Sequence record: MZ234013.1
Length of the DNA stretch: 64,000 nucleotides
Strand: one strand, 5' to 3'
DNA from: Escherichia phage vB_EcoM-101112UKE3-1
Both the position numbers and the translations under genes were made by a program. The notes below the pieces were generated by a model. It was not told where the DNA came from, ran no database searches, and saw only the letters and a list, made by a program, of their open reading frames with translations. Below are positions 4,180 through 4,740 of the stretch, one piece after another. Position 1 is the stretch's first letter. Each line of letters begins with the position of its first letter.

Positions 4180-4740
4180 ATGATTAATAAAATTGTGCAT
4201 GAAATGGCTTTAAACGGAGATTCATATAAAATATCTGCCGTAGTTGAAAATTTCATACTTAATAAAGTAAAAGAATATTTCACTGATTGTTCAGTTAGTT
4301 ATCAAGAAAAAATGGTTTTAACCGATGATACTGAAAAATCAAATAATTTGTTTTGTTCTAATTTTATAACTAAGAAGCGTACTAGAAGATTTGATATTGT
4401 TATTTCTCGCAACGGTAAAAAGCATATAATTGAAATTAAACACCAAGTTGGTGGAGGTACAGCTATTGATTCGGTTGGAATATATTTAGAAGATAAAGAG
4501 AAATTAAAAGAATACACAAAAACTGAAAACCCTGTGTCATTGATGATATTAGATTTTTTGCCATGCGGATATTATCCACGTAATAAATGGACAAAAAGAG
4601 AATCATTTACTGATAATCCAACCATCCAAGCAAGGTTTAATGAATATGCTAAATCACAAAACGTGTTAGTATTACTATCAAATACATATGATGAAGAATT
4701 ATATAATTCGTTTTTTGCTGCAATAAATGAGAGAATATAA
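4180..4740 (+). CDS. hypothetical protein with candidate PD-(D/E)XK nuclease motif, 186 aa, translationally coupled to dam
   Basis: ORF with GAGGA SD; stop TAA overlaps dam ATG (TAATG); motif D72-x12-E85-I-K87 ([19 protein letters not shown]) followed by GGG. Confidence 0.6.

Follow-up and report, generated by a model that had tools for sequence, protein, structure and literature searches.

What is an open reading frame (ORF) with nuclease-like features doing directly in front of the dam gene of a T4-like phage? To our knowledge, the Dam of T4 and T2 is a textbook "orphan" phage methylase, the biological role of which has never been clear. In the Journal of Bacteriology in 1988, Miner and Hattman reportedly described a 536-bp "insertion" of unknown origin 5′ to T2 dam, with no function assigned; the T2 record of that year (M22342) contains the ORF unannotated. 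In the GenBank record of phage Shinka the gene is labeled "putative DpnII restriction endonuclease," and nearly all other records seen have "hypothetical protein." No account of this ORF, or of a characterized T-even nuclease beside dam, was found in the literature, and the T4 annotation holds no characterized orthologue at the position between gene 61 and dam. The analysis described here leads us to consider the ORF (ORF186, for its length in codons) as probably the nuclease half, and Dam as the methylase half, of an active phage-borne Type II-like restriction-modification (R-M) cassette. The type of system is known; its place is unusual and historically important.

The locus was analyzed within a window of 64,000 nucleotides from Escherichia phage vB_EcoM-101112UKE3-1 (MZ234013.1). 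Window positions 3800-5600 are 100% identical to vB_EcoM-fFiEco06, JB75, G2540, and other phages, and the window phage is a Tequatrovirus. The gene order is T4-like, namely, 41, dmd, 61.4, sp, 61.2, 61.1, 61, a 66-aa ORF, ORF186, dam, and 56, with the following features around ORF186:

70-1191: gene 41
2855-3883: primase gene 61
3880-4080, minus strand: 66-aa predicted membrane ORF (phrog_2024), convergent with gene 61 and overlapping it by 4 nt
4125..4154, plus strand: early-promoter-like site, GTTTAC (4125-4130), 18 nt, and TGgTATTAT, from a consensus scan and homologue comparison
4168..4172, plus strand: Shine-Dalgarno sequence GAGGA, 7 nt 5′ of the ORF186 ATG, by direct reading
4180..4740, plus strand: ORF186, 186 aa with an ATG start (phrog_8706 in PHROGs, function unknown)
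4738..4742, plus strand: TAATG, in which the TAA stop of ORF186 overlaps the ATG of dam, by direct reading
4740..5519, plus strand: dam, a D12-class N6-adenine DNA methyltransferase gene, orthologous to T4/T2 dam (Pfam PF02086, MethyltransfD12, E = 6.5e-51)

The window dam is 96.4% identical at the nucleotide level to a T4 dam record. GATC specificity is stated in the T4 record and was assigned to the window Dam by orthology. Direct reading bore out the coordinates originally predicted for the ORF, the GAGGA, the TAATG overlap, and the D72, E85, and K87 codons. The early promoter predicted at 4125..4154 fared less simply. A site is present there, with TATTAT at 4149-4154 and TG at 4146-4147, scoring 9 of 12 in the consensus scan, but in this AT-rich region the scan alone performs at chance level (11 sites, compared to 13.7 ± 4.1 in shuffled sequences). 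Support comes instead from the homologues: in 7 of 9 upstream regions of divergent homologues, (G/A)(G/T)TTAC is followed after 17-18 nt by TG(A/G)TAnnAT 5′ of the ORF. Because this pair of elements is kept even though the spacers between them are unrelated and not conserved across the nine regions, the site in the window is credible, and the ORF and methylase gene appear to travel with a promoter of their own. The element pair agrees with the form of T4 early promoters.

The original prediction had also read a PD-(D/E)XK-like nuclease motif in ORF186. The codons concerned, together with that of a further conserved acidic residue, are as follows:

4246..4248, plus strand: codon of E23, an acidic helix 1 residue that is invariant in the alignment; paired with DpnII E152 by hhalign
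4393..4440, plus strand: catalytic-motif codons D72 ... E85-x-K87, invariant, on model strands 66-77 and 80-88
4393-4395, 4432-4434, and 4438-4440, plus strand: the individual codons of D72, E85, and K87

The positions of the three motif residues stand; the peptide quoted with them, F71..Q89, spans 4390-4446 rather than 4393..4440, a trivial offset. Homologues of ORF186 were gathered that share 29 to 99% identity. In an alignment of 10 sequences, E23, D72, E85, and K87 do not vary even at 29% identity, which supports the motif reading, and the ensuing block, H82 ... HQ-x-x-x-GTAIDS, is likewise invariant. Besides the catalytic residues, some 20 further positions show no variation at 29 to 64% identity. 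A confident AlphaFold2 model built with the family alignment as input (mean pLDDT, 81.7; pTM, 0.79) has an alpha-beta-beta-beta-alpha-beta core in which the second strand carries D72 and the third carries E85 and K87, and a Foldseek comparison against the PDB agrees with a nuclease fold. ORF186 thus shows the core fold of the PD-(D/E)XK superfamily and its conserved D ... (D/E)-x-K motif on strands 2 and 3. The observations that might have spoken against the nuclease reading, namely, a non-nuclease fold, a nonconserved motif, or a characterized T4 orthologue, did not materialize. ORF186 is a real gene under purifying selection: Nei-Gojobori dN/dS values are 0.05 to 0.2 for close pairs (the window against BMB16, ZJUN4, and T2, and SmallBear against Shinkou) and 0.1 to 0.37 for distant pairs.

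The family is tiny and restricted to T4-like phages. Among 1.84 billion representative proteins, a profile search found 12 matches in total; the full-length relatives among them are proteins from the T4-like phage loci, and the others are fragments or low-complexity or repeat proteins (P0016 and P0017), so these matches provide no bridge to a bacterial family. No relative turned up when 185,579 bacterial and archaeal genomes were scanned by pattern, IMG/VR contributed only two loci, and a fold search of BFVD returned only the orthologue from phage MX01. Among PDB sequences, neither phmmer with the protein nor hmmsearch with the family profile gave a match even at E ≤ 10, and NCBIfam gave only noise.

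Which known nucleases, then, does this family resemble? The best Pfam match of ORF186 is DpnII (PF04556), with 16.8 bits and an E value of 0.0045, below the gathering threshold of 23 bits. DpnII is the top Pfam match for three of seven family members, always over the same region of the profile, and the other four have no match; the best-scoring member, P0009, reaches 22.5 bits (E = 8e-5), still under the threshold. The REase_II model of PADLOC matches ORF186 with an E value of 9e-5. The Pfam match, being subthreshold, assigns no family. When the ORF186 family was aligned by hhalign with 15 genuine DpnII homologues, the probability was only 27% (E = 6.7e-4; score, 32.1), and the alignment paired E23, D72, and E85 with the invariant E152, D201, and E214 of DpnII and GGG with GG(G/S), whereas K87 fell opposite an invariant Asn. 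Column shuffles scored 14.9 ± 2.7 and block shuffles 18.0 ± 2.3, and none of the 200 of either kind reached 32.1. Judged by these profile comparisons, the similarity between the catalytic cores appears to be real but remote.

DpnII and MboI are GATC-specific, m6A-sensitive enzymes of PF04556. Like ORF186, they are partnered by a D12/Dam-type GATC methylase, and they show similarity to it in the core segments (V/M)EN ... RFD(I/F)VI ... (I/L)IE(I/V) ... GG(G/S) detected by Pfam, PADLOC, and hhalign. The differences are substantial. At 186 aa, compared to about 288 in DpnII, ORF186 lacks the N-terminal ~125 residues of the latter, and only profile positions ~126-235 of 278/291 align to it; it has E-x-K where DpnII has E-x-N; its gene precedes the methylase gene, unlike the arrangement for DpnII/MboI; and, unlike these enzymes, its family is confined to T4-like phages. 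Membership of ORF186 in PF04556 was rejected on account of the score below 23 bits, the length of 186 aa, and the missing N-terminal region. Since the DpnII similarity is subthreshold, with a 27% probability and K87 opposite Asn, a GATC specificity of ORF186 would be deduced mainly from its partner methylase.

That partnership is tight. In all 10 homologous loci examined, a PF02086-type D12 methylase gene lies directly 3′ of the ORF, and in 9 of the 10 the two genes overlap or abut, the exception being T2, with a 13-nt gap. Beyond the window, overlap or abutment is found in MX01, P0002, P0006, P0009, Jiaodavirus phages, P0011, and P0013. The pair occupies three different surroundings among these loci: it lies between genes 61 and 56 in Tequatrovirus, in the Dhakavirus MX01, and, where the contig reaches, in several metagenomic T4-like contigs; between denB and ndd in Jiaodavirus phages of Klebsiella; and directly upstream of rIIA in an uncultured T4-like phage. 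Two short contigs show the pair alone. The identities of the ORF and the methylase covary across loci, with the ORF diverging faster. The nuclease and methylase genes are adjacent in one transcription unit, as in Type II R-M systems, and their linkage is obligate in these loci; that the ORF never occurs without dam is an observation from a small number of independent lineages, for which common descent could also account.

The stronger notion that the overlap ties ORF186 to Dam in stoichiometric linkage was overstated: the T2 ORF stops 13 nt before dam, and T4 has dam without the ORF, so translation of T4 dam cannot depend on an upstream ORF. The junction varies at a homopolymer:

4711..4716, plus strand: T6 tract that sets the ORF186 C terminus, from sequence comparison

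Its length is 6 T in the window but 5 T in both T2 and T4 and 8 T in KarlGJung. With 5 T, the protein ends in ...NSFLLQ* with the stop 13 nt before dam, as in T2; with 6 T, it ends in …FFAAINERI*. The length of the tract decides both the last residues of ORF186 and whether its stop overlaps the dam start.

The distribution of the two genes was examined in about 503 phage records (Tequatrovirus) that share the end of gene 61. The promoter, the ORF, and dam are present together in about 145-148 records; dam is present in 182-183, with the ORF accompanying it in 148 of 182 dam carriers and only a remnant of the ORF in about 35 records. About 320 records, including RB32, RB3, and PP01, have neither gene; their match to the window ends at position 4091, and gene 56 comes immediately after gene 61 and the 66-aa ORF. 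The ORF without dam was found in none of the records examined. The covariation with dam that had been predicted is therefore strong: the ORF and dam are inherited and lost as a unit, and in the records examined no nuclease gene stands without its methylase gene. The boundaries of this unit and of two smaller deletions are as follows:

4092..5518, plus strand: presence/absence cassette of promoter, ORF186, and dam, from RB32 compared with the window
4105..4112, plus strand: upstream copy of the 8-bp repeat ATCACAAA, T4 deletion endpoint, from alignment of the window, T2, T4, and KarlGJung
4653..4660, plus strand: downstream copy of ATCACAAA, T4 deletion endpoint, from the same alignment
4171..4178, plus strand: upstream copy of the 8-bp repeat GATGATAT, KarlGJung/Bas37 deletion endpoint
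4542..4549, plus strand: downstream copy of GATGATAT, KarlGJung/Bas37 deletion endpoint

In RB32 and JLBYU24, ...CCTCCTT is joined straight to ATTGCTT... in the promoter region of gene 56; the window has 1,427 bp between the two. T4 represents another state. As originally stated, its annotation has no gene between 61 and dam, which are separated by a gap of 309 nt. However, ORF186 is not an accessory insertion relative to T4; rather, a 548-bp deletion between the copies of ATCACAAA has removed the ORF and its promoter from T4, and the unit that varies is the whole cassette. The size of the deletion fits the 61-dam gaps of 856 nt in the window and 309 nt in T4, given the 1-nt difference in the T tract. 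The final ~80 nt of the ORF survive in T4, in the 5-T frameshift allele also found in T2, which marks T4 as a deletion derivative and not as an ancestral empty site. The BASEL phage KarlGJung (Bas37) carries an independent 371-bp deletion between the copies of GATGATAT. These alignments show the dam-only state to be secondary, with the nuclease lost repeatedly, through at least two independent deletions. Repeated loss of the nuclease, with loss of the methylase alone never observed, amounts to an asymmetry of the toxin-antidote type, seen in few independent lineages. The "orphan" Dam of T4 and T2 is encoded by the same gene at the same locus as the dam of the cassette, where it is the second gene in 148 of 182 dam records. 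Natural Tequatrovirus dam usually comes second, after the nuclease gene, in a promoter-nuclease-methylase cassette, the solitary dam of T4 being a deletion derivative, and laboratory T4 looks like a phage that keeps only the methylase half of an R-M cassette.

The logic of an R-M-type module, which had been proposed at the outset from the juxtaposition of a nuclease-like protein and a methylase, is supported by the fold, the invariant residues, the linkage to the methylase, and the covariation. The catalytic activity of ORF186, its GATC specificity, its sensitivity to methylation, and its biological target are inferred. The cassette at 4092..5518 would bring its own early promoter, with the nuclease gene first and the methylase start at or within the nuclease stop, so that both proteins would be made early in infection. 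Dam would methylate GATC on the phage DNA, itself also glucosyl-hydroxymethylated. ORF186, which resembles the MunI/EcoRI class of small homodimeric Type IIP PD-(D/E)XK enzymes and is probably a homodimer of this structural class, would cut unmethylated targets, most likely GATC. Because the listed hosts are without exception Dam+ enterobacteria, their own DNA is protected from the start; the likely victims would be genomes of coinfecting or superinfecting phages without Dam methylation, among them the roughly two-thirds of the sampled Tequatroviruses that lack dam. The nuclease is dispensable and has repeatedly been lost via deletions between short repeats, T4 and Bas37 being such derivatives.

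The chlorovirus PBCV-1 infects eukaryotic algae, in which the host DNA lacks GATC methylation and is thus a substrate, unlike the DNA of the Dam+ hosts of the cassette phages. Its CviAI system (M.CviAI A581R with A579L) is a precedent for a virus-encoded GATC R-M pair and, like the cassette, consists of an early-expressed GATC methylase and a nuclease partner encoded by a lytic virus (PMC7248222). Several points count against the R-M reading. Given the Dam+ hosts, a methyl-sensitive GATC enzyme would have few obvious substrates; coexpressed Dam would methylate the DNA of a competitor as well; and the T2 allele is frameshifted at its C terminus. Glucosyl-hydroxymethylcytosine (glucosyl-hmC) blocks 94% of the Type II enzymes tested on T4 DNA (PMC7653180), and because this modification already shields T4 DNA, the need for Dam as an antidote is open to question. 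It is this combination of the glucosyl-hmC shield, Dam+ hosts, and Dam modification of rival DNA that favors coinfecting phages that are dam-less or undermethylated as the putative target. We regard as rather unlikely, though worth stating, a more specific proposal in which T-even Dam, a long-standing puzzle with no known phenotype, is the antidote of a phage-versus-phage weapon, with ORF186 cutting unmethylated GATC even in glucosyl-hmC DNA and adding to GATC depletion. If this were true, most relatives of the cassette phages, being dam-less, would be destroyed or out-recombined by them in mixed infections.

GATC is indeed the most underrepresented of the 256 tetramers in the window (82 observed compared to 217 expected; ratio, 0.38). 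However, in RB32, which has neither the cassette nor dam, positions 50001-100000 contain 78 GATC sites compared to 161 expected (ratio, 0.48). The depletion is lineage-wide and independent of dam carriage, and it was discarded as evidence of cassette activity, being equally present in the cassette-less RB32 and hence nondiscriminating.

Could the polarity of the enzyme be reversed? A DpnI-like ORF186 would cut the Dam-methylated cytosine DNA of the host, glucosyl-hmC at GATC would spare the phage, and phage Dam would top up host methylation. T-even phages do degrade host cytosine DNA, the nuclease is always linked to Dam, and only under this polarity would the Dam+ hosts offer abundant substrate. 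Yet the model of ORF186 is a single 186-aa domain without a methyl-reading domain like the DpnI winged helix, structure and profile comparisons match it best to ordinary Type IIP enzymes and to the methyl-sensitive DpnII, and a phage methylase would be redundant in hosts that have Dam. The nuclease, moreover, is lost with the methylase kept and never the reverse, the classical asymmetry of toxin and antidote. We therefore consider the DpnI-like alternative improbable.

The repeated losses admit another interpretation: ORF186 might be a decaying or inactive relic, a passenger of an ancestral cassette not yet deleted in many isolates. The gene has been lost at least twice via short-repeat deletions, without evident harm, in T4 and Bas37, and the C-terminal frameshift in T2 arises at the slippery T tract at 4711-4716. 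This picture is hard to reconcile with dN/dS values of 0.05 to 0.2, with the invariance of the catalytic and about 20 other positions at 29 to 64% identity, with intact frames in three genera or contexts, and with conserved promoter and start signals; an inactive relic is accordingly a poor prospect.

The two remaining readings rank low. ORF186 could be a MutH-like nickase, with hemimethylated GATC directing phage mismatch repair or seeding recombination-dependent replication. MutH is itself a PD-(D/E)XK enzyme that reads GATC methylation, and the standing of GATC as the most depleted tetramer of the window indicates that it matters in the lineage; however, no sequence or structural match of ORF186 to MutH (MutH/Sau3AI family) was found, and we hold this role to be very unlikely. 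Least probable of all is a homing-type endonuclease that cuts the cassette-less 61|56 junction and spreads the cassette by recombinational repair during coinfection, given that the same gene pair is present at three unrelated sites, which no single homing site explains, that homing endonucleases do not come obligately paired with a methylase, and that the best matches are Type IIP enzymes. A free-standing homing endonuclease was rejected as well: the polymorphic unit is the promoter, ORF, and dam together and not an endonuclease gene alone at one cognate site, and the gene pair is found at three.

Under the preferred R-M reading, the question of what Dam does for the phage becomes an R-M question, that is, one of self-protection, addiction, or competition between phages. 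Laboratory phages make this question testable, as T2 carries the ORF, T4 has deleted it, and RB32 is without both genes. With ORF186, a compact (186 aa) endonuclease family confined to phages would also be gained, one that may cut hypermodified DNA or tell it apart; should this prove true, the family could serve as a laboratory enzyme.

The surroundings of the cassette also vary. In T4 the homing endonuclease gene segF separates 56 from soc; the window lacks segF, and 56 is followed directly by soc (6099-6166); with the variable cassette beside it, this absence marks the stretch from 61 to soc as a hot spot of accessory-gene polymorphism. The 66-aa ORF has a strong AGGAGG Shine-Dalgarno sequence and is kept in cassette-bearing and cassette-less phages alike (RB32ORF030w); its sequence is present in T4 at 96.7% nucleotide identity, unannotated in NC_000866. 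Just 3′ of gene 61 and within this minus-strand ORF, a terminator-like hairpin with a T run lies at 4046-4065 (plus strand), around which a terminator is annotated in some related records. Finally, the 61.2 homologue at 2038-2685 (plus strand) is a 215-aa ORF with a GTG start in the window, and JB75, Shinka, and RB32 annotate a 118-aa ORF, which suggests that the 61.2 region is variable or its annotation inconsistent.
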